Shown here one piece after another: positions 1 through 15,800 of a DNA stretch of 64,000 bases. This DNA is from Candidatus Omnitrophota bacterium. Lineage in GTDB: Bacteria; Omnitrophota; Gorgyraeia; Aquiviventales; Aquiviventaceae. The position numbers and the translations under genes were made by a program. Under the pieces are notes generated by a model. The model saw only the letters and a program-made list of their open reading frames with translations, searched no databases and was not told the origin of the DNA. The stretch lies in the NCBI GenBank assembly GCA_016180575.1, contig JACPAY010000003.1:106154-170153 (forward strand), given 5' to 3'. Positions within the stretch are counted from its first letter, which is position 1. The number at the start of each line of letters is the position of its first letter.

Positions 1-75
1 GCCCAGCATCGCCAAGAGCCACTCCACACCTGTCCCCACCCCCACGACCGCCACCCGGTCCCCCGGATGAACCTG
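1..75 (-). other. ORF2 start of a further SAM-methyltransferase-like module (cut by the window edge)
   Basis: HPGDRVAVVGVGTGVEWLLAMLG resembles MTase motif I (xVLDxGxGxG). Confidence 0.3.
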
Positions 76-3000
76 CAGGGCGTTCAGCGCTTCGTGAGCG
101 AGCAACCGGAGCCGCTCTTCGTCTTCACGCCGCAGGAAGACGATCGGCGAGGCAAACACGCTGGCGAGCAAGACGTCCCATGTCTCATGCCGCAGCCGGT
201 CATACTCCTGGCTGGCGACGCGCACCGTGATGGCGGAATGATCGCTGAGGGGCACGCGGACCGTTTCCATCGGCCTGCCCGGAATCACCCGCGTCGCCAG
301 GTCCCCTTCCATCTCCCAGGGCCTCACGCAGATGAAGCGGGTCTTGGTCAATTGCGGATCCCCGACCGCGAGCCTTGCGCGGGGGTCATCCGCCCGGACA
401 TAGCGCGCAGGCGACTGCGGCACGTACAGCCGCTCCTCCCGGTCGACGATGCCGATGACCTCCAGCGGCTCATCGGCCGGCCCCTCCACGCCGTACAGCC
501 TGGGCTCCGCCGTCCTCAGCGCAAGGAGCAGCTTCATCGCCTGGTCTCGAACAGACTGCGAGACTTCGTGCTGCACGCCGTCTTGGGCCAATGCCCGGCG
601 GAGTTCGTCCAGCGACTGGCGCAGCCGCCTCACCTCCCCGCGGGTCAGGGCCCTCGAGGTCCAGGCCTGCCGCAGCGATAGGACGGTCTTCACGTAGCTG
701 AGATACCGCGGCTTCACATCGCGCAGCAGGCCCCAGGGCAGGTCCATGACGGTGACGTCAAACGCTTGCTCAGCCTCCCAGAACGACGCGGGGACGAAGA
801 CCGGCGTCTCCAGGAAGCGGGCAGACGCAAGCCGCGTGAGTTCCGGGGGCACGTCCTTGGCTTCGAGCCGGAATGACGGGGACGCCAGATGCCGCACCGC
901 CTCCTTGACTTCCCGGAGCAGCTCGTCCGCGGACTTGTCCCTGCCCTGCGCATCCGTGGAATCGATGGGCGGGCCAAACGCAATCGTCACGGGGCGCAGC
1001 CCCAGCCGGAGGGAGACATACGCGGGCACAATCGGCACGCCCGCCTGCCGCGCGGCGCGCACCACGCCGGTCTTCCAATGGCGCAGGTCCTCATCAAGCG
1101 ACGGGTAGGGGCGGCCCGCCGGGAAGAACCCGACCACCGCCCCCGGCTGCCGCAGGTGAGCCAACACCGTCTGCATCGCCTCGCGGGGGCTTGAGATCAC
1201 CACGGCCCCGCCCCAGTTGGTCAGCCATTGCGCCAGGCGCCCCAGCCGGTACTGGGAGGGGTTCGCCAGGAAGCGCGGGAACCGCCCATCGCGCAGGACG
1301 ACTTCCGAGGCGATGACCGCGCCCTCGAAGCCGTAGAGGAGGTGATTGCTGGCGATGAGGAAGCGTTGGGACTTCGGAAGGGGCAGATGGCCAAGGCCGC
1401 GCACCCGGACCAGCCACCATCGCACCGCGAGCTGGTAGACCCAGGTCCAGCCCCACAGCAGCCAGCCCAGCTGATCGCGCCCCACCTTGGGCGGATGCTC
1501 AACCCATGCGAGGTGGAGCGAACGGCGGGCGACCTCAAGGTCTCGTCCCCGCGTCAGCCGCGTGTAGAAGGGATATGAGAGCAGGCCCCGGCTCAGCAGG
1601 AGATCAGCGGCCTCCGCCAGCGGAAGGTAACGGTGGAGGCTCGCGGCTAATTGCTGCGCGTCATCCAGGGCGAACCGTTCTTCGACAGCCTCGCCGGAGA
1701 GCCCGGTGGCTTCATGCCGGAGTTCGTGCCGCAGGAGGACGTTGCAGAAGGCATCGCCGAGCGGGTATCGCGCGGCGTTGAGATCGCGGCGGACCTTCGG
1801 GAGCGTCTCATGGAGGACGAGGAGGCCGTTCTGAATGTGGTCGCCGGCGAGGTGGTCCGTCCCATCCTCCCCGATGAGATGGCGCGCGGGAAGGACGAGG
1901 AGCGGCTGTGCCGGGTCAAGCTGCGCCCGCTCCGCCGCCGGCACCCCGTCGAGCGCCTCCTGCAGCAGCGCCCCGAGCGCGTCATCGGACAGCCCTGCCG
2001 CGCCGCCCCAACCGGCCGGCAGCAGCGCGACCAGCTCGCGCTCGCCGGCTGAGAGCCTGCGCACGGTCAGCGAGATGGCGCGGCCACGCAGGGTAAGGCC
2101 TGTGCGTTCCCCCTGGCTCACGGCGAACGCCTGCGCGCGCAGGTCGGCGAGCTCTTCCATGCGGAGCCGGTCCGCCGGTGCCTCGCCGATGTAGAGGCCG
2201 GGTGCCGCCCCGCTCAACGACTCCGGAAGCGCCTTCGGCGCGTGCGCCCATGCCGCCGTCGCCATCGGCGGCTCCGAGGGACCCTGGCCCTCCGACCGCT
2301 TCTTGATATAGAGATGCTGGCCCTTGCCGATGGCTCCCTGGTACTCAAAACCCAGCTGCTGGGCCAGGCTGCTGGCGATGCCCAGCTCGGCATGGGTCAG
2401 CTCCAACGCGATGCGCGTCCCAGGCTCCGCCGCCTCGAAGGCGGCCTTGATTCGTTTATAGGCCCGTGCCGGTGGCGAGTCCTCTTGACGGTACCTGGCC
2501 CAACTCGTCAGCCACGCGCCCACGCCCCAGGCGGCCAGGTCCGCCGCGATGCCCCATAAGATCCACGCGGGATCATCCAGGACGGCCGGGATGAGCGCGG
2601 CGGCGGTGCCGAGCAAGGCGACCCGCTTGCCGCCGCGAGCGCCTTCTTCCACCATCAGGGTCAGCGTTTTCTTCGCGGAAACCAGGCGGTCCGGTTCTGA
2701 GGTGACGTCCATCTCCCCGAGGAAGAGATGAGGCTCTCGGAGCCTGCCTTGTCCGTCAGCCAGGTCGCGAGCTAACGCTTCCCGTTCCTTGTGCCCCGTC
2801 AGCGCTCTCCTCACATCACCCAGGATGTCCCTGACCGCCGCCTTCCCGCCCGGGTGGAGGGGGGGCCGGACGGAAATCTTGCCGCCGATCTCGTCCCGCG
2901 TCGTCCTGCTCAGCGGCCGCAGGCCTGGGAATTTGCCTTTGGGCGGCGTGAGCGACACCGTCACGGTGCCTTCGCCAGCCGGCGCGGCGGCAACCGCCGG

Positions 3001-6000
3001 CGCGGGCGCCGTCGCTCCGAGGAGCTCTCCCAGCATCTCCCGTTTGGCTTCGTCGCTCGCCAGGGAGGGGTCGGAACGAATGAGTTCCGCGTAATCCGCG
3101 ACTCCCTCTGTCTGGTCGCGCAGCCGCTCGAACAGCCCGCCATCCCCAAGGGAAAATCCGAGTTGCTCTTCAATCACCCGGCGTTCCCTCGCCTCGGGCC
3201 CCTCCATCGCCGGCTCGCCAAGCAGCCTGTCCGGCGGCACACGGGGGGGCTGGCCCGCTTCGAGCGCCTCCTGCAGCTGCTCGAGCGTCCCAGCGGTCTG
3301 AAGTTCGAGCGCCCACGCGGGCGGGGGCGGGGCCTGGCTGAGCGATTCGAGGACGGTGAGAGCGGGACGGAGCATCAGCGGCTCGGGCGGCCCTACCGAC
3401 TCAGCGAGCAGCCGCGCCGGCGGCATAGGCGCAGGCCGGATAGCCTCGAACACCTCCCGGAGCTGCTCAGGCGTCTCCTTGATGAGGCGTATCGAGTTGG
3501 GTGGGACGGAGGCTTCGCGAAGCGTCTCGAGGAGGGGGGGCGCGGGCCGGACCATCAGCGGCGCGGGCGCCGGTTCCGGGACTGGCGGTGGCTCGGCTTC
3601 TTCAGCCTGCGCCTCGCGGAGCATCGCCGACAGCCGCTCAGCCTCCGCCAGGCGATCCCGCACCACGTCCAGCAGGCGGTTGCGCTCCTCTACATGGCCG
3701 CGGCGGATGACGTCCCACTGCGCCTTCGGGATGTCGCGCCCAGGCCCTTTCGGCCGCGTCGGTTTGTTTGCGAGGAGGCCCTCGGCCGCTTCCCGGACCA
3801 TCTGGAACCGCTCTTCAGCCGCCTCATCCTCGCCGAGTGCCGCGAAGACCGAGCCCAGCCTGAGCCAGATGTTCAGCCGCGCGTTCACATCGAGAGGGAT
3901 TGCCCTCCCCTGCTGCTCGGCCCGCTTGAGCGCGTCCTTGGCGTCCTCCAACCGGTCCAATCGCATGCAGACAAGCCCGATATTGTAAAGACAGATCACT
4001 GCCGGCAGCTCGACGCGTCCGGGAGCGCCCTCAACCATCTGAAGCGCCTGTTGCGCGAGCGCAAGCGCCTGCTCCAGCTCCTCCGGAGCCGCGTCCTCGC
4101 GATTCAGCACGGCAACGGCTGCGTTCATGAGGGCCACCGGGTCGAGCGGGGCTTCCTCTTCGGTCGCGGGTGTCTCTGGAACAGGGCTTGGGAGCGGAGC
4201 TTCGTATGGCTGGCCCACGCCAGGCGGAGCCGCCTCCTCATCGACGAACACGGTGACCTCGCCCGCCGCGCGCTGGAGGAGGCCGGCGGGGATGCCAAGC
4301 GAAACGGGGCCGCGCACGGCCAGGTCCACCGCGCTGCGCTTGTGCTCACCCTTGGCGATCACGATGACCTCGCGGGCGTCCCGCAGCGTCCCCAGGCCCA
4401 GCGTGACGGCAAAGTCGTGCCGCACATGATTGGCCCGCCGCGAGGCCGGATGGAGCCGGACGATGCGGGTCGGTGAGTCAACCGGCGATCCCGTCTCATT
4501 GAATCCCAGATGAATGCTTCGGAACAGAGTCAAGAGGAACGCGTGCACCACGCGCAATCCCGGCACCGCCACCATCCACCGGCCCGAGCGATAGAGCCAC
4601 CACGCCGGCCCGCGCCCGATGCCCAGCAGGGCGATGTCGATGCCGCCCTGCTCGCGGATGAACGCCTCCATCTCCGCGGCTTCCTTGTGCAGGCCGGACC
4701 GGTCTCCCTTGAAGAGGTGCACGTGCTCCTCCTTCAGGGGGGACCGCTTCAGCCGCTTCAACGGCTCAATCAGCTCCTCCCGCAGCTGCGACGCGGCGCT
4801 GCCGGGGTCCTTCCGCGCCAGCCCCGCATATTCATCGACGTTCACGAGCCACACCTGCGACCACGGAAACTTGGCGTGGCGCTCGCTCGCCGCCGCCTCC
4901 AGCAGCGCCTTGTAGACGGGCTTCGGGGTTTCGCCAAACGGCACCGCGATGAGCACCTTGCCGCGGGCGTTGATGGCCGCCTGCATGCGGCGAAGGAGGT
5001 GCTCGGCGACCGCCGCATCGTCCCCGACGATGAAGACCGCCAGCGGCCGTCGCGGCGGCAGCCCATCCGGAAGCGGCGCCGTGAAGATGCGCACCCGCCG
5101 CCAGGCGCTCCCCAGCAGGCGCAGACCCCGTTGTCCCACCCACACCAGGCCATAGGCGGTCCCCGCATACCCCGCAGTCGCCAAGGCCGCCAACAAGGTG
5201 ACCCGCCAAGGAGGAGCAGTCCCCACCGGAATGCCGGCCCACCAGAAGGCGGCCATGTAGCCGATGTAATAGGTCGGGGAAACATCCAGCGCCATCGCGA
5301 GGAGGTCAAGCACCGGGCGTCCGACGGCATACAGCACCAGCGCGGCGGACACACCGAGCCACGCACTGCTCACGAACGTGGGGGCGGGTTGCCGGGCTCT
5401 CCGCAGCCACAATCCGAGCTTCAGCAGCGCCCACGCGGCGGTGAGCTCCAGCAGCGGCAACCCCACATGGAGCAGGCGGATGTAGGTGGCGACGCGCCAG
5501 CCGGGCCCGTAGTCGCCGAGGAGCGTGGCGAGCCAAAACTGCAGTTTCAAGCCCCCCCATCCCACCAAGAGCCCCGGCACATAGGGGCTGGGAGGCATGC
5601 CGGAAAAGTTCACGTGTTGGTACGCCAGCAGGCCGAGCGTCAGCGCGCCCGCCAGCGCCGCCGCCGGCCACCGCCGGCGCCCGCCAGGGTCCGGCGCCCA
5701 CGCCCGCCGCAGATCCGCCTCCTGGCCCACGCCGAGGGACGGCCCCAGCGGCCAGGCGAGGAGCTCCGCCGCGATGACGGCGGCGTTGAGCAGGAGGTGC
5801 GCGGCGAGCCATGAATCGGGGGCAATCTCGATGAGGCCCAGCGCCCAGAGGAGCACAAACGGCAGGCTGATGAGGAGATTGACCGCAAGGCCCGCCAGCG
5901 CCGGCGGCCCGCGGGTGGTCCACGGCATCCCGGAGAGGAAGTGGGCCCAGCGCACCGGCTCGGTTGGGACGCGGCCGCTGAGCTTCCCTTCCTTCAGCCA

Positions 6001-9000
6001 CGCCCAGCGCCCATGGAAGAGGTGGGCGAGGGCCGAGGGGGTCGTCCCGCGCTGCGGGTGGACCGATTCGGGCGGCTCATTCCACGGTCGGGGCTCCGCG
6101 AAGCCGCGCTGGGCCAGCCGGTTCAGTCTCGGGGTCAGCTCCCCTCCTCGATGCGCGCGACGCAGCTGCTTGACCCAGTCCAGGAACCGTTTGAATTCTG
6201 CCAGGTCCGCAAACCTCAGCGAGGGGTAGCGGGTGGTCATCAGCTGGAGGGACATGGCGATGCTCTCCCAATGCGCCCCCAGATGGGCCGGCGACCACAG
6301 GATGGAGAGCGCTTCCGTCAGCTTGGGGCTCGAAACCGTCGGAATGAGCCGTCCCAGCAGCCGCTTGATGATCCGGCGCATGTCCATTGGGGCCTGGCTG
6401 GATGGCGCATCGGCGCCTGAGGCAAAACGAACCATCGAGGAGCTGCGCCGTGGATTGAAGGGATGGTGCAGGACGTCGTCCGCGCCGCGATGCTCGAAGT
6501 CCCACGGATACCTGGCCGGCGCGCGCGATCTCGCCTGAGGCGGAGCGTCCGTCCCCGCCAGCGGATGGGCGCCCCCCTGCCCCTGGGGTGGAGACCGTTT
6601 CAGGAGGGCGCGGATTTCCTCAAGGCGTTCCTTCTTGAAATAGTAGTGGGTGTGCTTCCGCCGCTTCAGCTGCCGGTCAGGCTTCAGGCCGTCTTTGATG
6701 GCGCTCGACATCGTTGACGGCGATACCCCGACGAGTCGGGCCACCTCGCTCGCCAGGTACAGATCCTCGGCGTCGACGGTCAAGCGCTTGCGGATGGCGG
6801 GAAGCCGGCGACGGCTGAAGTAATAGTACGTGTGACGCCCGCGGGGAACGATACGGTCCGGCCTGAGTTCCTGATGCCTCATCGCGACAAGGATGGTCCC
6901 TTCAGACACCCCAATGGCTCCCGCCAGCTCACTCGCCAGGAAGAACCCAGGCAGACGGAATGGCTTGAGGACGGCCCGCAGCGCCCGTAATCGGCCCCGC
7001 CTGAAATATTGATAGGTGCGCTTGCCATGCGGTTGCACCAGGTCAGGGGGATCGACCTCACCGCGCTTGATGGCATCCCTGAGGACCTCGGCCGGCACCC
7101 CTAACAACTCCGCCATCTTCTCGATGGAGACAAATCCCTTTGGCGCAAGCGGCTTGAACCGCTCGCGCAGGGTCGGCACGCGAGCCGGGTCGAAGAACGA
7201 GCGGGGGTGCCGTCCCTGCGGCACCATCATGTCGGGCTGCAGACGCCCGTGGCGAATGGCGCTGTGCAGTGAGGATCTCGGAGCCGGCAACGCCTCGGCA
7301 AGCTGCCGAACGGACAAGAGGCTCGAGACAAATGCCGCGTTGATGAGGTGTGGGTGTTGCTCCACGTCCTTGAGGGGAACGGGTGAAAGCGCTGCCGAGT
7401 TGACGGTCAGCCGCTGTCGATCCTCCAGGAACTCAACCGGGAGATAGTGCTGGAGGCCGCGCGACTCCGGTGCTCCCACGACCTGCCCCATGCCCAGCGA
7501 CTCGTGCTCGACGTACCGGCCCCTCCACCAACCCGGAAGGCTCGTCAATGGCTCCTTCCCCTGGTTGCGGCGATGCGTGAAGAATCCGGTGATGACGAGC
7601 AGGGCGAGGACCGCCGCCGTCCACTCGAGGGGCAGACGCAGAACGATCGCATCGGCGAACGGGTCCTGCGGCGCCATCCCGGCGAAGCCGTAGGAGAAGA
7701 GAAGGGCCGGGATGAGCAGCAGGGAGAGCAGCCTGCGGTGCGGACCAGTCCTGTTCCCCGGCTCATCATGCGCCGCGGGCCACGCCGACTGGTCCGGCGA
7801 GGTCCCGCCCGGCCAGTCGAGCCCCAGGCTGAGGCGGAGGAGGCGCTGCTCCAAGGCGTTCAGCCGATACCACCGGGACCACTCGCCGGCTTGAAACTCG
7901 CGGTGCTGGACGCTCGCATGGGGATAGTCCATATGGAACCGGACCGCCTGCTCCGCCGCATGCCGGAACCTTCGGCCGGCCACCAGGCGGCGCGCGGCCT
8001 GCTGTGCCACATAGTTCGCGAGCATCTGACGAGCCACCAATGTCGGCTCCCGCCCCCCGCCGATGTGATGAGCCGCTTCGCGCGCCAGGCGCCTCAGGAA
8101 GGTGCGGCGAGGGAACAAGACGTCGTGAAGGTCAAGCAGGAGCAGGAGCGGTTTCAGGAGGAAGGCGGTGGGCGCGGCCAGATCAAGCAACCGATCGTGC
8201 TCCCGCGCCAGAACGAGAGGCAACAGCAGCCTTCGGACCGCCGCGAACCGGCGTGAGTGGCTCCGGGCCACGAGCCAGGGGACAAAGTGCATTTCCCCGG
8301 TCGTCGGCGCCGTCAGGGCCAACTCGCCATGCTGTCGGAGCAGCCGAATCCAGCCGGTCGCCCCCCGCGCACGCTGCCATCGCTGCACGTGCTGCCAGGC
8401 ATCCCGGTCAGCCCAGGCCGGAACCGCCCCCGCCAGCGCCATCGGGTCCTTCGGGAGATCCTGGGGCGCCCAAACGGTGCCCAGGATGCCGAGGAAGCCG
8501 GTCACGAGCGCCAGCAGGCCGGCGAACCCCGCGTAGCCTGTGAGCCAGGTGATCGGCTCCGAGGGATCGATGCCGAAGACCGCGCCGAGCCCCGCCGCCG
8601 CGCCCCCGAAGAGCACGCCCCACTCCAGGTGCTCGCGGATGCTGAAGGGTTTGCGCTCCAGTGCTGACGGCGGAAAATCGGTGTCTGACACCATGTTCTC
8701 GACGGCGGGCGGCGCGGCAGGCAACCTGTCTGACTTCGACACCGACTCTAAATTGGCGAGCTCAGGGACATCCTCCCCGGCGGCGGCTCGGTGTGCAAGC
8801 TGTTCCCATACACTGCCTTGCTCCACGACAAATGAAACGCCACGCGTCGTCCAGCGGCCATCAATGTGAGCTCTGACGCGACGCGGGGTCTCAACGACAA
8901 CGTAATGCTTGGAGCTCTGCCGCGTACCTTCCGGCGGAGTGTGACCGAAGGCCGTGACCAGCGCAGGATCGAGCAGCGGATGCGAAGAAAGATCCAGCAC

Positions 9001-12000
9001 CATGTGCGGCATGTAAAAATAATCGCCGAGCAGAATCAATATGTTCGCTGATTCCTCCGTCAGCTTTCTGGGCCCCTCCAGCAGAAGTTGATGTGGCGCG
9101 ATATGGAACACCGCCACTGTTGTCCCGTTACTGTGCTGAATCCGGCTTGCCGGCGCCCATCCCCAGCGATCGATAAAACCGGGAGCCTCGGCCTCCAGTG
9201 GTTCTTGCCGATAGAACGTTAACATCACACCGGTGGATTGCCTCTCCCCTACAGCGAGGTGCTTCCCAAGGCCATTAGGGTCCGTGATCGGTCTCGTCCT
9301 CCATTCGGCATGCCGGTTCATCACCTCAAGCAAGAACGTGTCGACATACACGTCATGCGCCACTCGAGACAGCGCTCCTACGCGGGCATATGAGGTCAAC
9401 TCGCGTTCTTGGTCGAACAGGATGACGCGGGTTGGGGTCCCAAGGAAAAAGAAATAACGTTGCGGGTCGTTCTTCTCGGCCAACGCCATAAACCGATTGC
9501 CCGTATCGCCTGACTTTTCACGTACTCGCTCAAGGACGGCCGGCAGAAAGCTCCATGTGCGTTGAAACGTTTTCGGCAAACCGAACTCGACAGGAGTGAA
9601 TCGAATCTGGCCTCCTGAAGCCGGATACGCGGTGCGGTGACGTTCGTTCGCGACGACCGCTTGACGGATCTTTGGATCGCCGAAATAGTTCAGAAGCACG
9701 CGATCGATGAACGTTTGCACCGCCGGATAACTGAGCATTCGAGACGACGGAATCACCTGACGCGGCTGATCCTCGGCCAGCTGGTCATACGACGATTGGT
9801 GACTCAACGTGTGGTAGAGAAAGAGCTCACGCCCCCGTATGGCAAGCACGAGTGCGTTCGTCGGCTGTTGTCGATCAATGAGTAATCGTATCCGGATTTG
9901 GCCATTGGCCGAGGCGATTTCCGGAATAGTGGAGACCAGGTCGCCCGCTAACCAATGGCCGAATATGACTCGCCACCCACCCAAACGGCACTCCAGTGCC
10001 CTGCGGGCCTGCAATGCGGGTAAGCTCGACGATCGAGTCGGGATCTGGTGCAGCGCGTTGGTGATGGGAGAGAGACGGGATGGAGAAAGCGTCATCGGTG
10101 GTGTGGCGGCAGCGTCAAGCGCCCCAGCGGCGTCATCGAGCGCCTGTTGCAACGTCTTTATCGCTGAAGCAACGTCACCGGTGGCGGGCGGCGCGGCAGC
10201 TGGATCTCTCCCTGAGGGAGGTAAAGGTTGTTTCCGCTGCAGCACCAGCACTGTTATCTCCCATTCCTCAGGTTGAGGATCAGCAATCGTATACGCATAC
10301 TCACTCCTCGCTGGCTCGTCATACTTGATCACCTTTTCCAACCCTAAGCGGTCGAGTGCTGCCTCAAAGGTCACATGGAGCTCGTCCTCCCATTGAGGAT
10401 GCGCAATGACCAAGAGTCCGCCTGGCTTCAAGGCCCGGACAAGCGGGCGGTATCGTCGTCGCAGTGCCGTCGTCTCATCCACCCCCATGTCATGGGCAAG
10501 ACCAGAGGGCGGGTCGAGGGCAAAGCGAGCCACGATGAAATCCAACGAGGATGCTTCGACGTGCTTCGCATAGTCGGTGTAATCGCGCACCTGGTGAAGA
10601 TACGGTCGATCCTGACTGGACGGAACCTCGTCACCCACGCCCTCAATGTCCACGCCCTGTCCTCGCAAAAATTCCAACAACGCTAACGTGTCTCCTCTTG
10701 GGCCTAGCTCGAGACCCTTCAATCCTTTCATTCGCTCAATGCTACCATAGGCTCTTAGCAGCTCTCGGATGATGGGCCGGAAGTACGCAAGGGGCTTGCG
10801 GGGTGTCCCTTGACGGTCAGCCCCCTCGTCTCTCCGCTCATCAGCCAATACGACTCGATCCACTTGTGCCTCAAGAGTCGCGTCTGCGGCGGGCGGCGCG
10901 GCGGGGCGGGCGTTCGACGCGTCAGCCGTCGGCTTGACACCGTCAGCGTCGGATGCTACAGTCGTGGCAGGAGGAGCCGATGAAGACGAAACGGAAGACG
11001 CCGATTCGCGTAACCCTCTTTCCCCAACCGCTTCAGCGGGACTATGACTGGGCATGGGCCCACTATGGCGAGTTGGGGCGACGGTATCCGAACCAATGGG
11101 TGGCGTTTGCTCACCGACGGGTCCTGGCGGCAGGCCCTCGCCTGAATCGGGTGCTGGAGAAAGCGCATCAGCAGGTGGACTGGCCGCATATCCCCCATCT
11201 GTTTGTGGAGTCAGGAATTCATATCTATTATGCGCATCACCCTTGAGGTCCACCGCACGTTGGACCTCGGGGCCAGCCGCACCCACCACCGGCTCTTCCT
11301 GTACCGCCTGCTCACGCGAGTTCGATTCCGCCAAGCCCGTGGCTGGAGCGACTACCATGTGGCGATCCTGGACACCGGCGCCCCCTATTCCCTGCTCCCC
11401 CTCTCGCTGTGGCCCGCCTTGCGTGTCGAGCGCCTCACGACGCTGCCCCTGCGCGGCATCGTCCCCGGCCACACCGCGGAGCTCCGCGCCGATCTGGCCC
11501 GTGTCTCCGGGCGCCTGCTGGATGCCCGCCGTGTCTCCCCGCGCCTGATCCTCTGGGCCATGCTGGCCAGGACCGATGAGGTCCCGCTGATCCTTGGCTG
11601 GGCCGGCTGCCTCGACCGCGCCAGGCTTGGATTGGACGGGCGACGTCGCTCCGCCTGGCTTGAGTTCTAATCCGTCCCTTCCCTCTGCAAGTCTCGCTGT
11701 GCCCCCTACTCCTGGTCCTTCACCTTTTGCTTCGTTTCCGGCGGGCGGCGCGGCAACATGGGGGGTGGACGGCTGGCCGACCGCATCGAGCAGACCGTCC
11801 AGGAACGCGAGGACCGACTCGTGAGCTCGCACATCTGCGGGAGACGCGAACCGAAGCGGCTCCGCGGCGACTGCCTGATAGTCGTCGCGGATGCGGCGGA
11901 GCGCGCCGGCCAGGGCCTCCCGCTCCGCCTGCCGCCCCGCGCCGGCGAAGTGCCGCCGGATGCGGTCGGTGAGGGGGCCCTTGGCATCCCGCCGGATGGC

Positions 12001-12762
12001 GGAGGGCAACTGCTCCACGACCGCGCGATTCGCCGCGTCAGCGGCCCGCTGGAGGGAGCGGGTGACCTCCTCGGTCATCCGCCGGATCTCCTGCATCGGC
12101 ATGCGGCGCATCGTGGCCAACGCGCCGCCCAATGACCCCATCCGCTCGTACGGATCAAACCGGAATCCCGGCTGCTCATGCCAGGCGCGCTCCACCGGAT
12201 AGCCCATCGGATCAGGCGCCGGCCCATCCGGAAGGAACGGCTCAAGGGCGTCTGGCGCGAGCTCCCAGTCCGTTTTTTGGAGGATCGTGAGGCGGGCGGC
12301 ATCGCCCGGCTTCGGCGCCACGAGGACCTGGATCCCGCCGCCGCCGAGCCCGCCGGGCACGGCCAGGCGATGCGCCTCGCGCAGCGCCGCCCGCTGCTGC
12401 TCGGGGGTCACGAAGCGGCCGGCGCCCAGCGCCGCCACCACGACGTGCTGGCTCTGCGGCGGCAGGCTGCTGGCGCCGGCCTGCCGGCTGACCTCCTCCG
12501 TCAGGCCCTGGGCATGCCGGACCGTGAGGCTGAGCTCCCGCAGGGCGGATGACGGCTCGACCTCCGTCAACCGCAGCCTCGAGCCCGCCTTCAGGACGCC
12601 AGGCTCATCGGCCAGACGGACCCATGCCGTCGCCAGCCAGGAGGGGCCGGCGGCGAGCGACGTGATCTGGAGCACGCCGTTAGACTCCAGCCATCCGCTG
12701 GCCTGGAGGGCCTCGACCAGCCTGACGACGGCCCGCTCGTAGGCATGCGCCGTCAGGCCCAT
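1..12762 (-). CDS. Second giant multidomain ORF2, partial (C-terminus beyond the left window edge; at least 4,254 codons in-window)
   Basis: Hand translation of the minus frame whose codons occupy + positions 3k+1..3k+3 found no in-phase TTA/CTA/TCA from 13272 down to 1. The last stop in this frame is the one that ends track ORF 13273..13458(-). ORF2 is absent from the track presumably because its own stop lies left of position 1. The first ATG after the ORF1 stop is 12760-12762 (MGLTAHAYERAVVRLVEALQ...). Minus-codon third positions are 20/20 G/C in sampled lines 12061-12120 and 8581-8640. Caveat: segment 10904-11739 does not look coding on this strand. Confidence 0.7.
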   Translation of the reverse strand, partial: MGLTAHAYERAVVRLVEALQASGWLESNGVLQITSLAAGPSWLATAWVRLADEPGVLKAGSRLRLTEVEPSSALRELSLTVRHAQGLTEEVSRQAGASSLPPQSQHVVVAALGAGRFVTPEQQRAALREAHRLAVPGGLGGGGIQVLVAPKPGDAARLTILQKTDWELAPDALEPFLPDGPAPDPMGYPVERAWHEQPGFRFDPYERMGSLGGALATMRRMPMQEIRRMTEEVTRSLQRAADAANRAVVEQLPSAIRRDAKGPLTDRIRRHFAGAGRQAEREALAGALRRIRDDYQAVAAEPLRFASPADVRAHESVLAFLDGLLDAVGQPSTPHVAAPPAGNEAKGEGPGVGGTARLAEGRDGLELKPGGATSPVQSKPGAVEAAGPAKDQRDLIGPGQHGPEDQARGDTAGIQQAPGDTGQIGAELRGVAGDDAAQGQRREALDTQGGPQREGEQGIGGAGVQDRHMVVAPATGLAESNSREQAVQEEPVVGAAGPEVQRAVDLKGDAHNRYEFLTPQTDGGYAASPPADALSPAPDSGEGLPPGPVGEQTPPIGSDTVAPTRHSGPMPSHSPAEAVGERGLRESASSVSSSSAPPATTVASDADGVKPTADASNARPAAPPAADATLEAQVDRVVLADERRDEGADRQGTPRKPLAYFRPIIRELLRAYGSIERMKGLKGLELGPRGDTLALLEFLRGQGVDIEGVGDEVPSSQDRPYLHQVRDYTDYAKHVEASSLDFIVARFALDPPSGLAHDMGVDETTALRRRYRPLVRALKPGGLLVIAHPQWEDELHVTFEAALDRLGLEKVIKYDEPARSEYAYTIADPQPEEWEITVLVLQRKQPLPPSGRDPAAAPPATGDVASAIKTLQQALDDAAGALDAAATPPMTLSPSRLSPITNALHQIPTRSSSLPALQARRALECRLGGWRVIFGHWLAGDLVSTIPEIASANGQIRIRLLIDRQQPTNALVLAIRGRELFLYHTLSHQSSYDQLAEDQPRQVIPSSRMLSYPAVQTFIDRVLLNYFGDPKIRQAVVANERHRTAYPASGGQIRFTPVEFGLPKTFQRTWSFLPAVLERVREKSGDTGNRFMALAEKNDPQRYFFFLGTPTRVILFDQERELTSYARVGALSRVAHDVYVDTFLLEVMNRHAEWRTRPITDPNGLGKHLAVGERQSTGVMLTFYRQEPLEAEAPGFIDRWGWAPASRIQHSNGTTVAVFHIAPHQLLLEGPRKLTEESANILILLGDYFYMPHMVLDLSSHPLLDPALVTAFGHTPPEGTRQSSKHYVVVETPRRVRAHIDGRWTTRGVSFVVEQGSVWEQLAHRAAAGEDVPELANLESVSKSDRLPAAPPAVENMVSDTDFPPSALERKPFSIREHLEWGVLFGGAAAGLGAVFGIDPSEPITWLTGYAGFAGLLALVTGFLGILGTVWAPQDLPKDPMALAGAVPAWADRDAWQHVQRWQRARGATGWIRLLRQHGELALTAPTTGEMHFVPWLVARSHSRRFAAVRRLLLPLVLAREHDRLLDLAAPTAFLLKPLLLLLDLHDVLFPRRTFLRRLAREAAHHIGGGREPTLVARQMLANYVAQQAARRLVAGRRFRHAAEQAVRFHMDYPHASVQHREFQAGEWSRWYRLNALEQRLLRLSLGLDWPGGTSPDQSAWPAAHDEPGNRTGPHRRLLSLLLIPALLFSYGFAGMAPQDPFADAIVLRLPLEWTAAVLALLVITGFFTHRRNQGKEPLTSLPGWWRGRYVEHESLGMGQVVGAPESRGLQHYLPVEFLEDRQRLTVNSAALSPVPLKDVEQHPHLINAAFVSSLLSVRQLAEALPAPRSSLHSAIRHGRLQPDMMVPQGRHPRSFFDPARVPTLRERFKPLAPKGFVSIEKMAELLGVPAEVLRDAIKRGEVDPPDLVQPHGKRTYQYFRRGRLRALRAVLKPFRLPGFFLASELAGAIGVSEGTILVAMRHQELRPDRIVPRGRHTYYYFSRRRLPAIRKRLTVDAEDLYLASEVARLVGVSPSTMSSAIKDGLKPDRQLKRRKHTHYYFKKERLEEIRALLKRSPPQGQGGAHPLAGTDAPPQARSRAPARYPWDFEHRGADDVLHHPFNPRRSSSMVRFASGADAPSSQAPMDMRRIIKRLLGRLIPTVSSPKLTEALSILWSPAHLGAHWESIAMSLQLMTTRYPSLRFADLAEFKRFLDWVKQLRRAHRGGELTPRLNRLAQRGFAEPRPWNEPPESVHPQRGTTPSALAHLFHGRWAWLKEGKLSGRVPTEPVRWAHFLSGMPWTTRGPPALAGLAVNLLISLPFVLLWALGLIEIAPDSWLAAHLLLNAAVIAAELLAWPLGPSLGVGQEADLRRAWAPDPGGRRRWPAAALAGALTLGLLAYQHVNFSGMPPSPYVPGLLVGWGGLKLQFWLATLLGDYGPGWRVATYIRLLHVGLPLLELTAAWALLKLGLWLRRARQPAPTFVSSAWLGVSAALVLYAVGRPVLDLLAMALDVSPTYYIGYMAAFWWAGIPVGTAPPWRVTLLAALATAGYAGTAYGLVWVGQRGLRLLGSAWRRVRIFTAPLPDGLPPRRPLAVFIVGDDAAVAEHLLRRMQAAINARGKVLIAVPFGETPKPVYKALLEAAASERHAKFPWSQVWLVNVDEYAGLARKDPGSAASQLREELIEPLKRLKRSPLKEEHVHLFKGDRSGLHKEAAEMEAFIREQGGIDIALLGIGRGPAWWLYRSGRWMVAVPGLRVVHAFLLTLFRSIHLGFNETGSPVDSPTRIVRLHPASRRANHVRHDFAVTLGLGTLRDAREVIVIAKGEHKRSAVDLAVRGPVSLGIPAGLLQRAAGEVTVFVDEEAAPPGVGQPYEAPLPSPVPETPATEEEAPLDPVALMNAAVAVLNREDAAPEELEQALALAQQALQMVEGAPGRVELPAVICLYNIGLVCMRLDRLEDAKDALKRAEQQGRAIPLDVNARLNIWLRLGSVFAALGEDEAAEERFQMVREAAEGLLANKPTRPKGPGRDIPKAQWDVIRRGHVEERNRLLDVVRDRLAEAERLSAMLREAQAEEAEPPPVPEPAPAPLMVRPAPPLLETLREASVPPNSIRLIKETPEQLREVFEAIRPAPMPPARLLAESVGPPEPLMLRPALTVLESLSQAPPPPAWALELQTAGTLEQLQEALEAGQPPRVPPDRLLGEPAMEGPEARERRVIEEQLGFSLGDGGLFERLRDQTEGVADYAELIRSDPSLASDEAKREMLGELLGATAPAPAVAAAPAGEGTVTVSLTPPKGKFPGLRPLSRTTRDEIGGKISVRPPLHPGGKAAVRDILGDVRRALTGHKEREALARDLADGQGRLREPHLFLGEMDVTSEPDRLVSAKKTLTLMVEEGARGGKRVALLGTAAALIPAVLDDPAWILWGIAADLAAWGVGAWLTSWARYRQEDSPPARAYKRIKAAFEAAEPGTRIALELTHAELGIASSLAQQLGFEYQGAIGKGQHLYIKKRSEGQGPSEPPMATAAWAHAPKALPESLSGAAPGLYIGEAPADRLRMEELADLRAQAFAVSQGERTGLTLRGRAISLTVRRLSAGERELVALLPAGWGGAAGLSDDALGALLQEALDGVPAAERAQLDPAQPLLVLPARHLIGEDGTDHLAGDHIQNGLLVLHETLPKVRRDLNAARYPLGDAFCNVLLRHELRHEATGLSGEAVEERFALDDAQQLAASLHRYLPLAEAADLLLSRGLLSYPFYTRLTRGRDLEVARRSLHLAWVEHPPKVGRDQLGWLLWGWTWVYQLAVRWWLVRVRGLGHLPLPKSQRFLIASNHLLYGFEGAVIASEVVLRDGRFPRFLANPSQYRLGRLAQWLTNWGGAVVISSPREAMQTVLAHLRQPGAVVGFFPAGRPYPSLDEDLRHWKTGVVRAARQAGVPIVPAYVSLRLGLRPVTIAFGPPIDSTDAQGRDKSADELLREVKEAVRHLASPSFRLEAKDVPPELTRLASARFLETPVFVPASFWEAEQAFDVTVMDLPWGLLRDVKPRYLSYVKTVLSLRQAWTSRALTRGEVRRLRQSLDELRRALAQDGVQHEVSQSVRDQAMKLLLALRTAEPRLYGVEGPADEPLEVIGIVDREERLYVPQSPARYVRADDPRARLAVGDPQLTKTRFICVRPWEMEGDLATRVIPGRPMETVRVPLSDHSAITVRVASQEYDRLRHETWDVLLASVFASPIVFLRREDEERLRLLAHEALNALQVHPGDRVAVVGVGTGVEWLLAMLG
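940..1400 (-). other. ORF2 PlsC/LPLAT-like acyltransferase module
   Basis: FLIASNHLLYGFEG is an NHxxxx block with the usual Asp not in register. VVGFFPAGRPYPS corresponds to the FPEGTR block. AARQAGVPIVPAYV corresponds to the PIVPV block. Confidence 0.45.
1590..1910 (-). other. ORF2 HExxH module (fourth copy of the ORF1 A/B/C family, shorter)
   Basis: GDHIQNGLLVLHETL...FCNVLLRHELRHEATG...EAVEERFALDDAQQLAASLHRY. The LLRHExxH core (1711-1750) and the preceding DH...LH block parallel ORF1 modules A-C. Confidence 0.45.
3790..4110 (-). other. ORF2 TPR-like repeats
   Basis: AVICLYNIGLVCMRLDRLEDAKDALKRAEQ and NARLNIWLRLGSVFAALGEDEAAEERFQMV fit the 34-aa TPR pattern. Confidence 0.5.
4225..5040 (-). 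other. ORF2 NagB / 6-phosphogluconolactonase-family (sugar-phosphate isomerase/deaminase) module with an insertion
   Basis: VLIAVPFGETPKPVYKALL; WLVNVDEYAGL; GGIDIALLGIG, then a ~33-aa insert, then IHLGFNETGSP; then AVTLGLGTLRDAREVIVIAKGEHKRSAV...GIPAGLLQ...VTVFVDEEAA. The order and spacing follow the NagB/Pgl family. Confidence 0.6.
5100..5930 (-). other. ORF2 polytopic membrane region
   Basis: Hydrophobic helices LAGLAVNLLISLPFVLLWALGLIEIA, WLAAHLLLNAAVIAAELLAW, LAGALTLGLLAY, LLELTAAWALLKLGLWL, AWLGVSAALVLYAV, YYIGYMAAFWWAGIPVG and VTLLAALATAGYAGTAYGLVWVG. Confidence 0.55.
6601..7320 (-). other. ORF2 four tandem 60-aa helix-turn-helix (excisionase/MerR HTH_17-like) repeats, period exactly 180 nt
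   Basis: R1 is LLSVRQLAEALPAPRSSLHSAIRHGRL...SFFDPARV. R2 is FVSIEKMAELLGVPAEVLRDAIKRGEV...TYQYFRRGRL. R3 is FFLASELAGAIGVSEGTILVAMRHQEL...HTYYYFSRRRL. R4 is LYLASEVARLVGVSPSTMSSAIKDGLK...HTHYYFKKERL. Confidence 0.6.
8704..8719. repeat. 16-nt direct repeat, copy A (GGCGGGCGGCGCGGCA)
   Basis: Exact 16-mer, read in the ORF2 frame as A-A-P-P-A (context SDRLPAAPPAVENM). Confidence 0.85.
8720..10182 (-). other. ORF2 cassette 1: ~490-aa module of unknown function, lower GC
   Basis: Protein-like translation (…RYFFFLGTPTRVILFDQERELTSYARVG…ANILILLGDYFYMPHMVLDL…) with no family recognised. It is bounded exactly by repeat copies B and A. Confidence 0.4.
10183..10198. repeat. 16-nt direct repeat, copy B (GGCGGGCGGCGCGGCA)
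   Basis: Exact 16-mer, 1479 nt (493 codons) from copy A. Context in ORF2 is RDPAAAPPATGD. Confidence 0.85.
10199..10887 (-). other. ORF2 cassette 2: class I SAM-methyltransferase-like module, lower GC
   Basis: LKGLELGPRGDTLALLEF is motif-I-like. SSLDFIVARFAL and RALKPGGLLVIAHP follow. The module is bounded exactly by repeat copies C and B. Confidence 0.5.
10888..10903. repeat. 16-nt direct repeat, copy C (GGCGGGCGGCGCGGCG, 15/16)
   Basis: 15/16 identity, with G instead of A at the last base. It lies 705 nt (235 codons) from copy B. Context in ORF2 is ARPAAPPAADA. Confidence 0.8.
10934..10962 (+). promoter_or_regulatory. Sigma70-like promoter for the + strand two-gene cassette
   Basis: TTGACA (10934-10939), a 17-nt spacer, then TACAGT (10957-10962), immediately upstream of the AGGAGG/ATG of the DUF5678-like gene. 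Confidence 0.4.
10969..10974 (+). promoter_or_regulatory. Shine-Dalgarno site (AGGAGG)
   Basis: Perfect AGGAGG located 5 nt upstream of ATG 10980. Confidence 0.5.
10980..11246 (+). CDS. Small DUF5678-like protein (88 aa from the preferred start)
   Basis: Track ORF 10953..11246. The in-frame ATG at 10980 is preceded by AGGAGG (10969-10974) with a 5-nt spacer. The sequence MKTKRKTPIRVTLFPQPLQRDYDWAWAHYGELGRRYPNQWVAFAHRRVLAAGPRLNRVLEKAHQQ... fits the small DUF5678-type pattern. Stop TGA is at 11244-11246. Third-position G/C is clearly higher on this strand than on the antisense ORF2 frame. Confidence 0.55.
   Translation: MKTKRKTPIRVTLFPQPLQRDYDWAWAHYGELGRRYPNQWVAFAHRRVLAAGPRLNRVLEKAHQQVDWPHIPHLFVESGIHIYYAHHP
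11230..11670 (+). CDS. Retropepsin-like (clan AA) aspartic peptidase
   Basis: Track ORF 11203..11670 starts at TTG; the internal ATG at 11230 (MRITLEVHR...) is preferred and overlaps the upstream gene by 17 nt. It carries the D-T-G-A active-site motif in hydrophobic context (HVAILDTGAPYSLLP) and a C-terminal LILGWAGCLDRARL pattern typical of single-domain retropepsins. In lines 11341-11460 the + third positions are 18/20 and 19/20 G/C, against 12/20 and 14/20 for the antisense frame. Stop TAA is at 11668-11670. Confidence 0.55.
   Translation: MRITLEVHRTLDLGASRTHHRLFLYRLLTRVRFRQARGWSDYHVAILDTGAPYSLLPLSLWPALRVERLTTLPLRGIVPGHTAELRADLARVSGRLLDARRVSPRLILWAMLARTDEVPLILGWAGCLDRARLGLDGRRRSAWLEF
11740..11755. 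repeat. 16-nt direct repeat, copy D (GGCGGGCGGCGCGGCA)
   Basis: Exact 16-mer, 852 nt (284 codons) from copy C. Context in ORF2 is TPHVAAPPAGNE. Confidence 0.85.
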
Positions 12763-12805
12763 CCCGAGCCGGACCTGCGCCTCAGTGCGTTCGACGAGCC
12801 CGCTG

Positions 12806-15800
12806 TCAACGCACCTCCTCGTCGTAGAGGGCATGCCGGACGATCGAATCTCGGAAGACGTCAAGCGGCTCTCCCAGCCGCTCCGCCGACGCCCGGACAT
12901 CGCCCTCGGCGGCCCGCAGCGCCTCCACTCGCGCAGCGACCGCCCGCTGAACCTCCGCAAGTTCGGTGGCATAGTCGCGCACCTGCTGGAACCGCCACAG
13001 GCCGGGATGATCCGGATAGGGGGCAAACCGATAGACCCGCTTGACGCTGTCCGGCCGCCACTCGCTTGCCTGGGTCGTCCACACCACGTCTTCCCCAAGC
13101 CCAGGATCGAACCGCTTCACAACCCTCGCGACCCCTGGCTGGAACGCGCCAGTATGCAGCGAGGTTCTGAGGTCGCTCCTGCCGAGATGGAACCACAGCC
13201 TCCCATGACCTGTGGTGGGCACCTGGAAGTCGAGGTCGGGAAACAGCCCCGGCCGCCTGGCATCCGGGCTGGTCAGCTGGGCGCGCAGGGCGCGCATCCC
13301 CAATTCGCTCTCGGTCGGCTGGGGGGCCGCGGGCTCCTCGGCGGCCGGCGGCTCCTCTGCTGCCAACGCAAGAGGTTCGGGCGCGGCGGCGGGTTCCGGC
13401 GCCGCGGGCTCAGGCGCGCGGGCATCCGCCGGCGCGGGCGCCGTCGGGCCTGCCTCATTGAGCAGCTGCCGCAAATACGGTTCCCGCTGGATCGCTTCCT
13501 GCATCAGCCGATCGAACCAGAGGCTCTTCGCGGACCGCCCGTCTTCCTCCGTCATCAACAGCGCCAGGCCCTTGGCCAGCGCGACGCTGTTATAGAGCCC
13601 ATGGACGAAGACGTTGGCGGCCACGGCTCCCAACAGCCGGATGAGACCAGGCGGGAGGCTCGGGAGCTCGATGACATTTGCCAGCGCCTCATAGCCCGCC
13701 ACGCCGAACAACGCGCCCGCAACCGTGGCCGCGGCGATGAGGCCGAACCCGATCCAGCGCTGGCGTCGGGCCATTGCGACGCGCTCTCTGGCCTCCCGCG
13801 CGGCGTCCCAGAGCCGATCGACCGCCGCGTCCCGCAACGATCGGGGGGCGCCGGCCAGGTAGAGGGCGACGTGAAGCTGGACATCCCAGAGATCCAGTCG
13901 AGGATGCAGCAACAGGAAGACTTGCGCGAGCTTCTCCGCCTCCTCGACGCTGAGCCCCGGCAGGGTTTCCTGCAGGGTTCGAGCTAGATCGGTGAGAGGC
14001 TTCCCCAATGGATGCGCATTGAGGTAGCGCCCGCCGGTGAAGGTGGCCATGTGCCAGATGGTCCGCGGGAACTCGATGAGCGCCGCGAACCACACGGCGA
14101 TCAACTGGACCCAGGCAGACCACGCCGCCACCTCCGCCGGCAGCGGCCGGCCGGCCCGCGCGAAGAGCCAGCCTGCCAGGAGCCGGAATGCGGTCACGCT
14201 CCCCGGAAGCATGAGGATCGGTGGAGCGGATTCTGCGGCAGATGGACGGACGTCGATGCGCACGCGGGCGCTGACCCGCTCACCGGGAGCCAGGATGACC
14301 GGCGTGGACTCGCCGAGGCCGGCTGCATGGAGGTTCATCGCATCGGTCGCGGACGTCTGGGGCTCGACCGAAACAAACTCCTCGCCCTCCGGCACCCACA
14401 CGACCGTATGGGTGAAGAGCGGATCCTGCCGGATCTCGACGCGGCGCCCTTGCGGGTCCTCCAGCACCGAGACGATCTCCCCCTGTTCATCCGGCTGCAA
14501 CCGGGTGAAAACATGGTCTAGGCTGCGGCCCTCCAGGAGGGTTAGGGCGCGCAGGTCCCACGACGTGCCTTCGACCGGTACAGGCGCCTGCGGCAGCGGC
14601 ATCCGCTCGGCGTCCGCCTGCCAGACCGAGGCGCCGGGCACCGCGAGCCGCCAGCGTCCCCGGTCGGGCGTCCGAAACCAGGGATGGAACCCGAAGCTCG
14701 CGACGCGCCGCCGCCGCACATCGTCATTGACCACCTCCACCTCGATCGCGAGCCCGCTGCTCGTGACGCGATACGTGAGCGTCGGATGCAGCGGGCCGAA
14801 GAACCGCGCCATCTCCTGGGCGCTCTCCGGCGTCAGGGCCAGGCGAATGAAGCTCCCCTGCGCATCCTGTCCGGATTCGAGCACGGTCCAGCGGGCGCGC
14901 ATGGCCATCCCGTGCAGCGCATGCGGACCCAGCATCCGCACCAGCGGAGAACCCCTGACGTCCACATGCTCGCCGTCGAAGGTGAACTGCCCATTGCCGA
15001 GCCGGTTCGCCCAGGGCCCCAGGAACGGCAGGCCGCCGTCCTCGGCGAGGTCATCAGGCTGATGCAGCAGCTCCACCCCATCGACCACGAAGGAGGTCAC
15101 CTTCCCGCCGAGCTCCGGCGCCACTTCGATAAACGTCCGGCCGGTCGGATCGGCCGCGCGGATGACCGCGCGTCCCCCCAGCCACTGGCGCCAGGCGGCA
15201 CGGTCTTCAGCCGGCACGCCGAGGCTGTCCAACAGCTGCCCGCGCGCCGCCTCGGTCGGCAGCCGGAAGCTCACCGGAATGGGAACGCGCGGCTCTGCCA
15301 CCTCCAGCAGCCAGCCGAGATAGCTGCGCATCGACTCCAGCGCATTCTGGCGAGCCGCGTCCTCCAATGCGGAGAACTTGCGGAGACCCTTGAAGGTCTC
15401 GCTGTAGCCCTCCAGAGGCTGAAGGAGCCTGATGCGGACCTCCTCGATCGGTTGTCCGCGGAACTCCAGCGGCGTCTTCAGCGCAAGCTGGAGGAGCCGG
15501 TCCTCCGGGAATGCCACCTGGCGCACCTCGCTGGACCGCAGCGCCCGCACGTGAGCGGTCAAGAAGTCGCGCAGCGATGCCACCGCCGCCTCCCTGGTCT
15601 CATCCGGCACAAGGCCCCAGGCGCCAAGGCGCTCATCCTGTTCCGCGCTCTCCGAGGTCACGCTCAAGATGATCCGCTCTTCCGGCTGCCGCCGGCTGAA
15701 CGACTCACGCAGGGCGGACGGCAGGTCGTCCCCCGCCGCAATGACGAAGGCCTGAGGTTGGGGTGCGGCGGGCGGAGGCTGAGGCGCCGCGACCGGCTCA

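Follow-up and report, generated by a model that had tools for sequence, protein, structure and literature searches.

Long antisense overlapping genes have been described in Pseudomonas aeruginosa, i.e. olg1 and olg2 of 957 and 1536 nt, and in E. coli O157:H7 (PMC8850804, PMC9927249). Multi-enzyme giant proteins have been reported from Omnitrophota (West-Roberts et al. 2023, 10.1101/2023.11.21.568195; 2026 preprint, 10.64898/2026.06.07.730766), and these two preprints say nothing about antisense or opposite-strand genes, a lack of cysteine or stop codons. Here we analysed a stretch of 64,000 nt of contig JACPAY010000003.1 from a Candidatus Omnitrophota bacterium (the window, with positions counted from its first letter), in which two giant open reading frames (ORFs), ORF1 and ORF2, occupy essentially the entire length of the minus strand. 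A plus-strand cassette of two small genes with its own promoter lies within ORF2 at 10903-11739, gene 1 encoding a DUF5678-family protein and gene 2 a putative retropepsin-like protein. Our analysis suggests, with good though not full confidence, that this is a mobile toxin-antitoxin-like cassette adapted to giant genes, the other strand of which is read through as a cysteine-free linker of the giant protein.

The overlap shares two features with olg1/olg2 and the E. coli O157:H7 cases, namely a long ORF that lies fully within an opposite-strand gene and sequence evidence for both frames. Those are young, restricted ORFs in an old gene, whereas the nested element here appears to be an old two-gene operon with a promoter, and it is the host frame that seems to have adapted. 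Unlike olg1/olg2, the overlap recurs in unrelated host genes of metagenome-assembled genomes (MAGs) labelled as three phyla, it is known from sequence alone, and its host-frame signal is the avoidance of stops and cysteines, not amino-acid conservation. Most long bacterial antisense candidates rest on one genome, and they are rare and disputed, while the same overlap recurs here in 19 giant-gene contexts. The host ORFs resemble the reported Omnitrophota giant proteins both in size, with 17046 and more than 4372 aa in the window and up to at least 6812 codons elsewhere, and in content, i.e. starch synthase, sugar-metabolism, methyltransferase and TPR domains.

Type II toxin-antitoxin modules accumulate as self-promoted cassettes in chromosomal arrays, e.g. 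in sedentary integrons. Our pair is like them in consisting of small, overlapping and co-transcribed genes with their own promoter, found in co-oriented arrays separated by repeats. Unlike the toxin-antitoxin cassettes of integrons, neither protein is in a known family of this kind, and no integrase or attC-like site was seen (no dedicated search was made). To our knowledge, cassette arrays inside a translated giant ORF, with the frame running through every cassette, have not been described for integrons. Inteins and self-splicing introns are host-sparing selfish insertions in coding sequence, and by analogy the cassette would be a mobile element within an important coding sequence that leaves the host product intact. 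Unlike inteins and introns it involves no splicing; the host would be spared by an open, in-frame and benign complementary strand of the cassette.

Two genes opposite one giant frame

The frame of ORF2 runs unbroken through the cassette, as the preliminary description of this DNA had stated. On the minus strand it is open from 13116 to the window start (1-13116, 4372 codons) and continues past that start. Its 279 codons over 10903-11739 are free of stops and of cysteine (Cys) and are rich in Gly, Ala, Pro and acidic residues. G, P, Q, A, E and D make up 62% of this translation, in agreement with the composition noted earlier, and hydrophobic residues make up 14% compared with 33% in the rest of ORF2. 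The predicted tryptic peptides of the linker include GDTAGIQQAPGDTGQIGAELR and EALDTQGGPQR.

Opposite this stretch, the plus strand carries a near-consensus promoter of the sigma-70 type, TTGACA-17-TACAGT (10934-10962), with TG before its -10 box (extended -10). A ribosome-binding site, AGGAGG, can be read from the sequence at 10969-10974, 5 nt ahead of the ATG at 10980, and is followed by gene 1 (10980-11246, 88 aa) and gene 2 (11230-11670, 146 aa), which overlap by 17 nt. The promoter, the binding site and the start codon had all been pointed out before and lie exactly where they were placed. This promoter is the sole sigma-70-like site in 10500-12300, where shuffled sequences give 0.1, and TTGACA-17/18-TATAGT-like boxes are found 40-55 nt upstream of gene 1 in 7/10 homologous loci. 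The 3' flank of the cassette (11671-11738, plus strand) is noncoding on the plus strand and reads GNEAKGEGPGVGG in the ORF2 frame. It is CT-rich as had been noted (80% C+T), and its G/C at ORF2 third positions is 7/23 and not the 3/13 given before, a small discrepancy. No intrinsic terminator was found after gene 2.

The coding statistics change strand at the cassette and nowhere else in the window. Both GC by codon phase and codon-usage log-odds trained on ORF1 favour the plus frames over ~10800-11550 and the ORF2 frame elsewhere, which bears out the earlier remark that third-position G/C favours the plus strand here. Because the GC1-vs-GC3 phase alone cannot tell a gene from codon-aligned antisense in this DNA, with many ORF1 windows being ambiguous, codon-usage scoring was applied. 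Compared pairwise, the homologous loci differ by 0.28/0.20/0.55 in the plus-strand nucleotides of gene 1 and by 0.33/0.26/0.55 in those of gene 2 (codon positions 1/2/3), and the encoded amino acids differ by 0.43 on the plus strand versus 0.67 in the complementary (giant) frame. The third-position excess and the lower plus-strand amino acid difference point to protein-level purifying selection on the plus frames, and the comparison shows that both plus-strand genes are real.

The same arrangement was found in 18 further loci, L001-L005 being retrieved by an exact-protein look-up, L006-L009 among species-representative genomes and L013-L021 among metagenomes of the Joint Genome Institute (JGI) (L014 and L015 are duplicates). 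The loci fetched contain close homologues of the pair with 52-82% identity, plus one deleted copy, and the MAG labels as recorded are Omnitrophica, 'Planctomycetales' and 'Elusimicrobia'. The giant frame is open across the pair in 19/19 loci (the window and the 18 others), and both plus-strand ORFs are intact in 16. The phase is identical in all 19, with the giant-frame codons being the reverse complement of the gene 2 codons, while the other two antisense frames contain 4-11 stops per locus. In 11 distant homologues from ordinary contexts, the aligned antisense frames end after 5-163 codons.

The antisense frame aligned with gene 2 reaches the contig ends or extends over 757-6812 codons, and over 3394-6812 codons where the contigs are long. 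It is open for 1398 codons in L001, 1614 in L002 (the whole contig), 2745 in L009 (GC 0.45), 4075 in L006, 4888 in L020 (GC 0.51) and 6812 in L007, i.e. the whole 20.4 kb, and L014 has a complete ORF of 3394 codons (3363-3394 aa). A single frame in L007 encodes a transaldolase and TPR upstream of the cassette and a methyltransferase, a glycosyltransferase and a hydrolase downstream of it; signal peptidase II and metallo-beta-lactamase domains precede the cassette in L014. We searched 1.84 billion representative proteins with the read-through peptide of 279 aa and obtained seven matches of 531-6420 aa, and in the five long ones (2936-6420 aa) the read-through segment lies well inside the host protein. 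Gene callers break the giant frames at the cassette in L001-L004, and a nested cassette would explain why giant ORFs are fragmented at such spots.

Three loci have damaged copies of gene 2. The copy at 3451-3958 of L009, on an Elusimicrobia-labelled contig, has an in-frame internal deletion of ~57-59 aa with the plus-strand ORF still open, and in L001 and L013 gene 2 has lost its usual stop or its C-terminus. The giant frame is open in each of them, suggesting that the constraint on the host frame is at least as strong as that on the plus-strand genes.

Stops and cysteines in the giant frame

The giant frame avoids stop codons across the cassettes. We resampled the synonymous codons of both plus-strand genes from each host's own giant-frame usage and obtained an open-frame probability of 0.026 in the window and of 0.0003-0.049 elsewhere among the loci; the product of these values is ~3e-21, a figure that overstates independence because the loci share ancestry, and the third positions are near saturation (0.55 difference). 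Pooled over the 18 loci, the giant frame has 0 stops versus 78 +/- 8 expected, the minimum being 52 in 1000 resamplings, and 0 Cys across the cassettes versus 74 +/- 8 expected. The codon-shuffling check proposed in the preliminary description was also run for the window alone. The probability of no antisense stop in the two genes is 0.05-0.10, that of no antisense Cys ~0.01, and that of both jointly 0.0005-0.0014. The noncoding flanks of the cassette have open probabilities of 0.65 and 0.52, which together with the in-frame length lower the joint probability of the window further.

An internal control in the codons of gene 2, independent of any host codon table, gives the same picture. In the gene 2 copies of 16 loci, CTA occurs 0 times (28 expected), TCA 0 times (8 expected) and TTA 0 times versus 68 for TTG. 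GCA and ACA, the reverse complements of both cysteine codons, occur in 0/254 and 0/122 cases. The other four-fold families are A-ending in 8.9% of their codons, with CGA, GGA and CCA at 10-20%. The same frame in 11 out-group protease genes contains 61 stop and 55 Cys codons; of these, L022, with a GC of 0.65, has 4 of each kind.

The absence of Cys is a property of the giant frames as a whole. We counted 9 Cys among the 17046 aa of ORF1, 0/4075 in L006 and 3/6812 in L007 (pooled 0.14%), while ordinary genes on the same contigs have ~0.8-1%. This near-total absence would be a previously unreported property of giant proteins. Avoidance of 'near-stop' codons was considered as its cause and rejected, since Trp, Tyr, Gln and Glu are as frequent as usual. 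We also rejected an alternative genetic code, the plus-strand genes ending in TAA/TGA and the giant frames lacking all three stops. The read-through peptide is also enriched in G, S, D and E across the loci.

These data show that, where the giant frame crosses the cassette, selection acts against its stops and Cys. A triplet-phased avoidance of stops, combined with the avoidance of an amino acid that the host shuns, would be hard to explain unless the minus strand is translated within the giant protein. The two host-frame signatures are orthogonal to each other and absent from the out-group, and the plus-strand genes are clearly selected at the protein level at the same time. We thus infer that both strands are actually expressed.

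Identity, mobility and meaning of the cassette

Gene 1 belongs to the DUF5678 family, as had been proposed, with 24.2 bits against Pfam PF18929 at a cut-off of 23.2. It has 49 homologues of 80-90 aa with 52-81% identity, nearly all of them matching PF18929, and its position suggests an antitoxin-like partner. Gene 2 has 39 homologues in the database, mostly of exactly 146 aa, and carries D48-T-G-A and the motif LILGWAGCLD; in an alignment of 32 sequences, D48, G50 and A51 never vary and T49 is kept in at least 90%. The AlphaFold (AF2) model built from this alignment has a predicted local distance difference test score (pLDDT) of 79.4 and a predicted template modelling score (pTM) of 0.71. The top 12 matches of the model in the PDB by Foldseek are the proteases of feline immunodeficiency virus (FIV), equine infectious anaemia virus (EIAV) and human immunodeficiency virus (HIV) and the Rickettsia APRc, at probability 1.00, with target template modelling (TM) scores of 0.47-0.65 and E-values of 1e-3 to 1e-2. 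With moderate confidence we therefore assign gene 2 a predicted retropepsin fold, the protease assignment being based on the motif and a moderate structural match. The overlap and the D-T-G-A motif noted earlier for the 'retropepsin-like' gene are both present.

Gene 2 is like Rickettsia APRc (PDB 5c9f) and the retroviral proteases in its D-T-G-A motif, its length in the range of ~100-150 aa and its predicted fold. It differs from them in scoring below the Pfam thresholds, in being apparently soluble and free-standing, since the eye detects no membrane anchor in its sequence, and in being always preceded by a DUF5678 gene. The 17-nt overlap is conserved, and the pair occurs together with the same short overlap in every recovered locus. 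The same layout is seen in distant homologues (27-40% identity) from cyanobacterial, Chloroflexota, Bryobacter and further contigs, where an overlapping gene that ends in a DUF5678-like C-terminus lies upstream, and the two-gene module is therefore old and widespread.

The cassette keeps company with toxin-antitoxin genes. The same antisense islands carry classical pairs of the type II kind on the plus strand: L002 has PIN+CopG, L006 has BrnT+CopG together with DUF433+DUF5615 twice, L007 has DUF433+DUF5615 once, and L020 has PIN as well as DUF433+DUF5615. In the 3.4-kb array of L006 the giant frame has 0 stops, and the other two antisense frames have 28 and 33. This array (8685-12228) holds four or five plus-strand pairs of the toxin-antitoxin type, divided by copies of a 261-nt repeat that are 76-100% identical over their aligning parts and encode a Trp-rich module of ~87 aa (GRQWLTPDGSTDWRAIW) in the giant frame. 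The pair itself has the architecture of a type II system, i.e. two small overlapping co-oriented genes with their own promoter. From this architecture, the autonomous promoter and the island neighbours we infer that it is toxin-antitoxin-like or an addiction module.

The cassette is bounded by a direct repeat in the window. The 16-mer CGGCGGGCGGCGCGGC is found at 10887-10902 (copy C, plus strand, encoding AAPPA in the ORF2 frame) and at 11739-11754 (copy D, plus strand), 93 nt before the ATG of gene 1 and 69 nt past the stop of gene 2, while shuffled flanks give repeats of at most 9 nt. Its exact 15-mer core GGCGGGCGGCGCGGC occurs four times, at 8704, 10183, 10888 and 11740, the two further copies being A (8704-8718) and B (10183-10197), both on the plus strand. 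All four encode AAPPA in ORF2. The spacings of 1479, 705 and 852 nt are each a multiple of 3, and the 852 nt between copies C and D correspond to 284 codons. ORF1 and ORF2 contain just one more AAPPA, written in different codons, and the 15-mer is thus a repeat at the DNA level.

Flanking direct repeats are seen in 6/16 loci, ~60-100 nt ahead of gene 1 and 19-99 nt beyond gene 2, and each locus has its own repeat sequence (window 16, L004 12, L005 14, L019 15, L007 74 and L006 261 nt). The expectation that other pairs would be flanked by the 16-mer of the window held for L005 only, where the exact 15-mer is found just past gene 2; the direct repeats of the other loci differ in sequence. The 74-nt repeat of L007 translates to GGLEGHLLAGLGFVLSLVGFGGLL, a hydrophobic, helix-like segment. 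ORF2 has no detectable similarity to the other giant frames except across the cassette. Even the closest relative, L005 (82% amino acid identity in gene 2), is homologous to the window at the DNA level only between the -35 box and the stop of gene 2. The comparison shows that the cassette occurs in unrelated giant-ORF contexts, and it is probably mobile or at least modular.

We propose the following mechanism. The two-gene cassette would have entered a giant multi-enzyme ORF in the antisense direction, at a stretch between domains, and is now bracketed by a 16-nt repeat of host sequence; the insertion would duplicate its target and would have to preserve the reading frame. In this orientation the cassette's own start and stop codons would be harmless to the host frame. 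Because the two frames are codon-aligned, host stops (TTA, CTA or TCA on the plus strand) and host Cys (GCA or ACA) could be avoided by synonymous choice alone. Opposite each host stop or Cys, gene 2 would have a Leu, Ser, Ala or Thr codon for which synonyms exist, and the demands of both proteins could be reconciled almost free of cost. Ribosomes moving along the giant mRNA would read ~280 extra codons as a flexible linker of Gly, Ala, Pro, Ser and acidic residues and then proceed to the downstream enzyme modules. The cassette promoter would produce a small bicistronic mRNA in the opposite direction, on which gene 2 would be translationally coupled to gene 1.

Several points weigh against this proposal. 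The case for both strands comes from sequence statistics alone, and many of the loci are contigs of ~1 kb, so that a 'giant' frame is established for ~9/19 of them. The Foldseek E-values of gene 2 are only ~1e-3, and the protein stays under the Pfam cut-offs of RVP (17.3 versus 20.7 bits) and Asp_protease_2 (13.1 versus 24.3). The toxin-antitoxin part is based on context only. PADLOC and NCBIfam report no toxin, antitoxin or defence family for either protein, the AF2 model of gene 1 has no meaningful PDB match, and we found no paper linking retropepsin-like proteins with toxin-antitoxin systems. As to mobility, the flanking repeat is not beyond chance in nine of 16 loci, no inverted repeats bracket the cassette, which holds only the two small genes and no transposase, and the Pfam matches in the scanned portions of the two giant ORFs include no integrase (integrases were not searched for systematically). 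Nor was any other recombinase seen, or an allele with an empty site, no search having been aimed at such an allele.

Could the open frame simply reflect chance or composition, i.e. an inverted GC-rich insertion that leaves the antisense frame open with no selection on the giant frame there? Antisense stretches on the plus strand of ORF1 are open by chance for up to 1657 codons in this window of 69% GC, and the codon usage of ORF1 leaves the two genes open in ~10% of resamplings. Against this, 18/18 other loci are open in the same phase, with probabilities of 0.0003-0.016 at GC of 0.45-0.59, the pooled lack of stops is joined by an independent lack of Cys, and both the out-group homologues and the other antisense frames do contain stops, which makes this explanation extremely improbable. 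Neither does it seem at all likely that only the giant ORF is functional and the plus-strand pair is a silent, decaying relic of a capture. The damaged copies in L009, L001 and L013, each with an open giant frame, would fit such decay; 16 loci nevertheless have both plus-strand ORFs intact and of conserved length, the D-T-G-A motif, the promoter and the 17-nt overlap are conserved, and the substitutions are concentrated at plus-strand third positions with fewer amino acid differences there than in the giant frame.

The retropepsin-like protein may instead be a dedicated processing protease of the giant polyprotein, with the DUF5678 protein as its regulator, kept inside the gene it serves. This close clade is found inside giant ORFs only (19/19 loci), many HExxH motifs can be seen by eye in the giant frames, and West-Roberts et al. 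(2023, bioRxiv 10.1101/2023.11.21.568195) have proposed that the giant proteins of Omnitrophota are cleaved by proteolysis. We consider a dedicated protease unlikely, since unrelated classical toxin-antitoxin pairs occupy the same islands, implying a niche that is not protease-specific, the cassette adjoins different modules in every locus, and distant members of the module (cyanobacterial, Chloroflexota, Bryobacter) have no long antisense frame. About equally doubtful, or slightly more so, is the view that ORF2 yields separate products with an internal restart after the cassette, the open frame only keeping ribosomes moving and avoiding Rho-type polarity. Stop avoidance does require translation through the cassette and not one final polypeptide, and it would fit that gene callers split L001-L004 at the cassette and place such a restart in L001-L003. 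The avoidance of Cys and the enrichment in G, S, D and E argue somewhat against it by pointing to selection on the peptide itself, and in L014 the cassette sits midway along one complete ORF. It is largely a sub-case of our preferred explanation, both strands still being translated.

The preliminary description had listed three alternatives and preferred none of them. The comparative sequence evidence from 18 loci and the out-group strongly favours its proposal of a genuine long antisense overlap with both strands in use, and its translated, antisense-derived disordered linker would follow from that. Its recent inverted insertion that happens to stay open is half right. The unrelated flanks and the 16-nt repeat speak for an insertion, while the frame does not seem to be open by chance and the clade is an old one (52-82% identity). 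If this holds, giant 'multi-enzyme' ORFs would be mosaics that take up foreign cassettes in frame, and modules of the toxin-antitoxin type might stabilise or regulate giant genes.

Neighbouring cassettes and the giant ORFs

ORF1 (12806-63946, minus strand) encodes 17046 aa with starch-synthase and fucose-pyrophosphorylase domains, and ORF2 is multi-domain with Glucosamine_iso, Acyltransferase, HTH_17/MerR and TPR among its Pfam domains; the Pfam scan covered parts of both. With many thousands of codons and diverse enzyme domains, the two have the make-up of Omnitrophota multi-enzyme giant proteins. A protein 100% identical to gene 2 is present in NCBI as HYT90_01675 of 'Candidatus Omnitrophica bacterium'. 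ORF2 likely starts at the ATG at 12762 or at an in-frame start upstream. The stop of ORF1 is at 12806-12808; the in-frame ATG at 12834 would overlap the end of ORF1, and the second one at 12762 lies 44 nt downstream of the ORF1 stop. The two ORFs are adjacent or overlapping, in different frames.

Two sense cassettes lie at lower window positions than the antisense cassette. Cassette A-B (8719-10182, minus strand, 488 codons) is an orphan module of GC 0.55-0.58 in which the ORF2 frame is the best-scoring one, and cassette B-C (10198-10887, minus strand, 230 codons) is likewise in the ORF2 frame at lower GC. Both have GC of 0.55-0.60, are bounded by the 15-mer like the antisense cassette, and have lengths that are multiples of 3. 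The region 8700-11250 as a whole has a GC of 0.55-0.64 versus 0.68-0.75 around it. The translation from A to C (723 aa) has no homologue in a set of 5.8 billion proteins and no Pfam or NCBIfam match. Motifs similar to those of S-adenosylmethionine (SAM) methyltransferases, LELGPRG... and LKPGGLLVI, can be seen by eye in cassette B-C, with no profile match. By sequence, A-B and B-C look like in-frame foreign insertions into the giant gene.

We speculate, rather tentatively and with more doubt than belief, that giant ORFs serve as in-frame landing pads both for sense modules such as A-B and B-C and for antisense operons of the toxin-antitoxin type. A-B and B-C, with their low GC and the shared 15-mer at their borders, hint at this. 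Insertion would be a dedicated process that duplicates the target and preserves the frame, and a guild of cassettes would have co-evolved as stop-free and cysteine-free linkers. If true, selfish or stabilising elements would reside inside an essential gene by dual coding and not by splicing, and whole operons would routinely be nested antisense in translated sequence.

The plus strand opposite ORF1 has stop-free stretches of 1300-1657 codons, e.g. 51395-56365, 44027-48262 and 36935-40834. None of them scores as plus-strand coding by codon usage; they are the usual codon-aligned shadow frames of a gene with 69% GC. Repeated modules of ~60 aa with HExxH, following 'DGHxDLHxAL...GRAPP', were noticed by eye in both giant proteins (LLRHEGRHLLYRL, LLRHEVRHLLYHL and LLRHELSHLLYHL in ORF1, LLRHELRHEATGL in ORF2), and they may be metalloprotease-like units able to process the giant protein.

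A third recurrent plus-strand ORF of ~105-120 aa (VTEVGALIESLRHEIRLVAEG) lies beside the pair in L007 (9183-9545), L014 (9200-9544) and L004 (1818-2135), and its Pfam matches are weak and of the coiled-coil type. Hydrophobic, helix-like segments are seen by eye beside the read-through linker in the giant frames of L002, L004 and L007, a feature that the window does not share.

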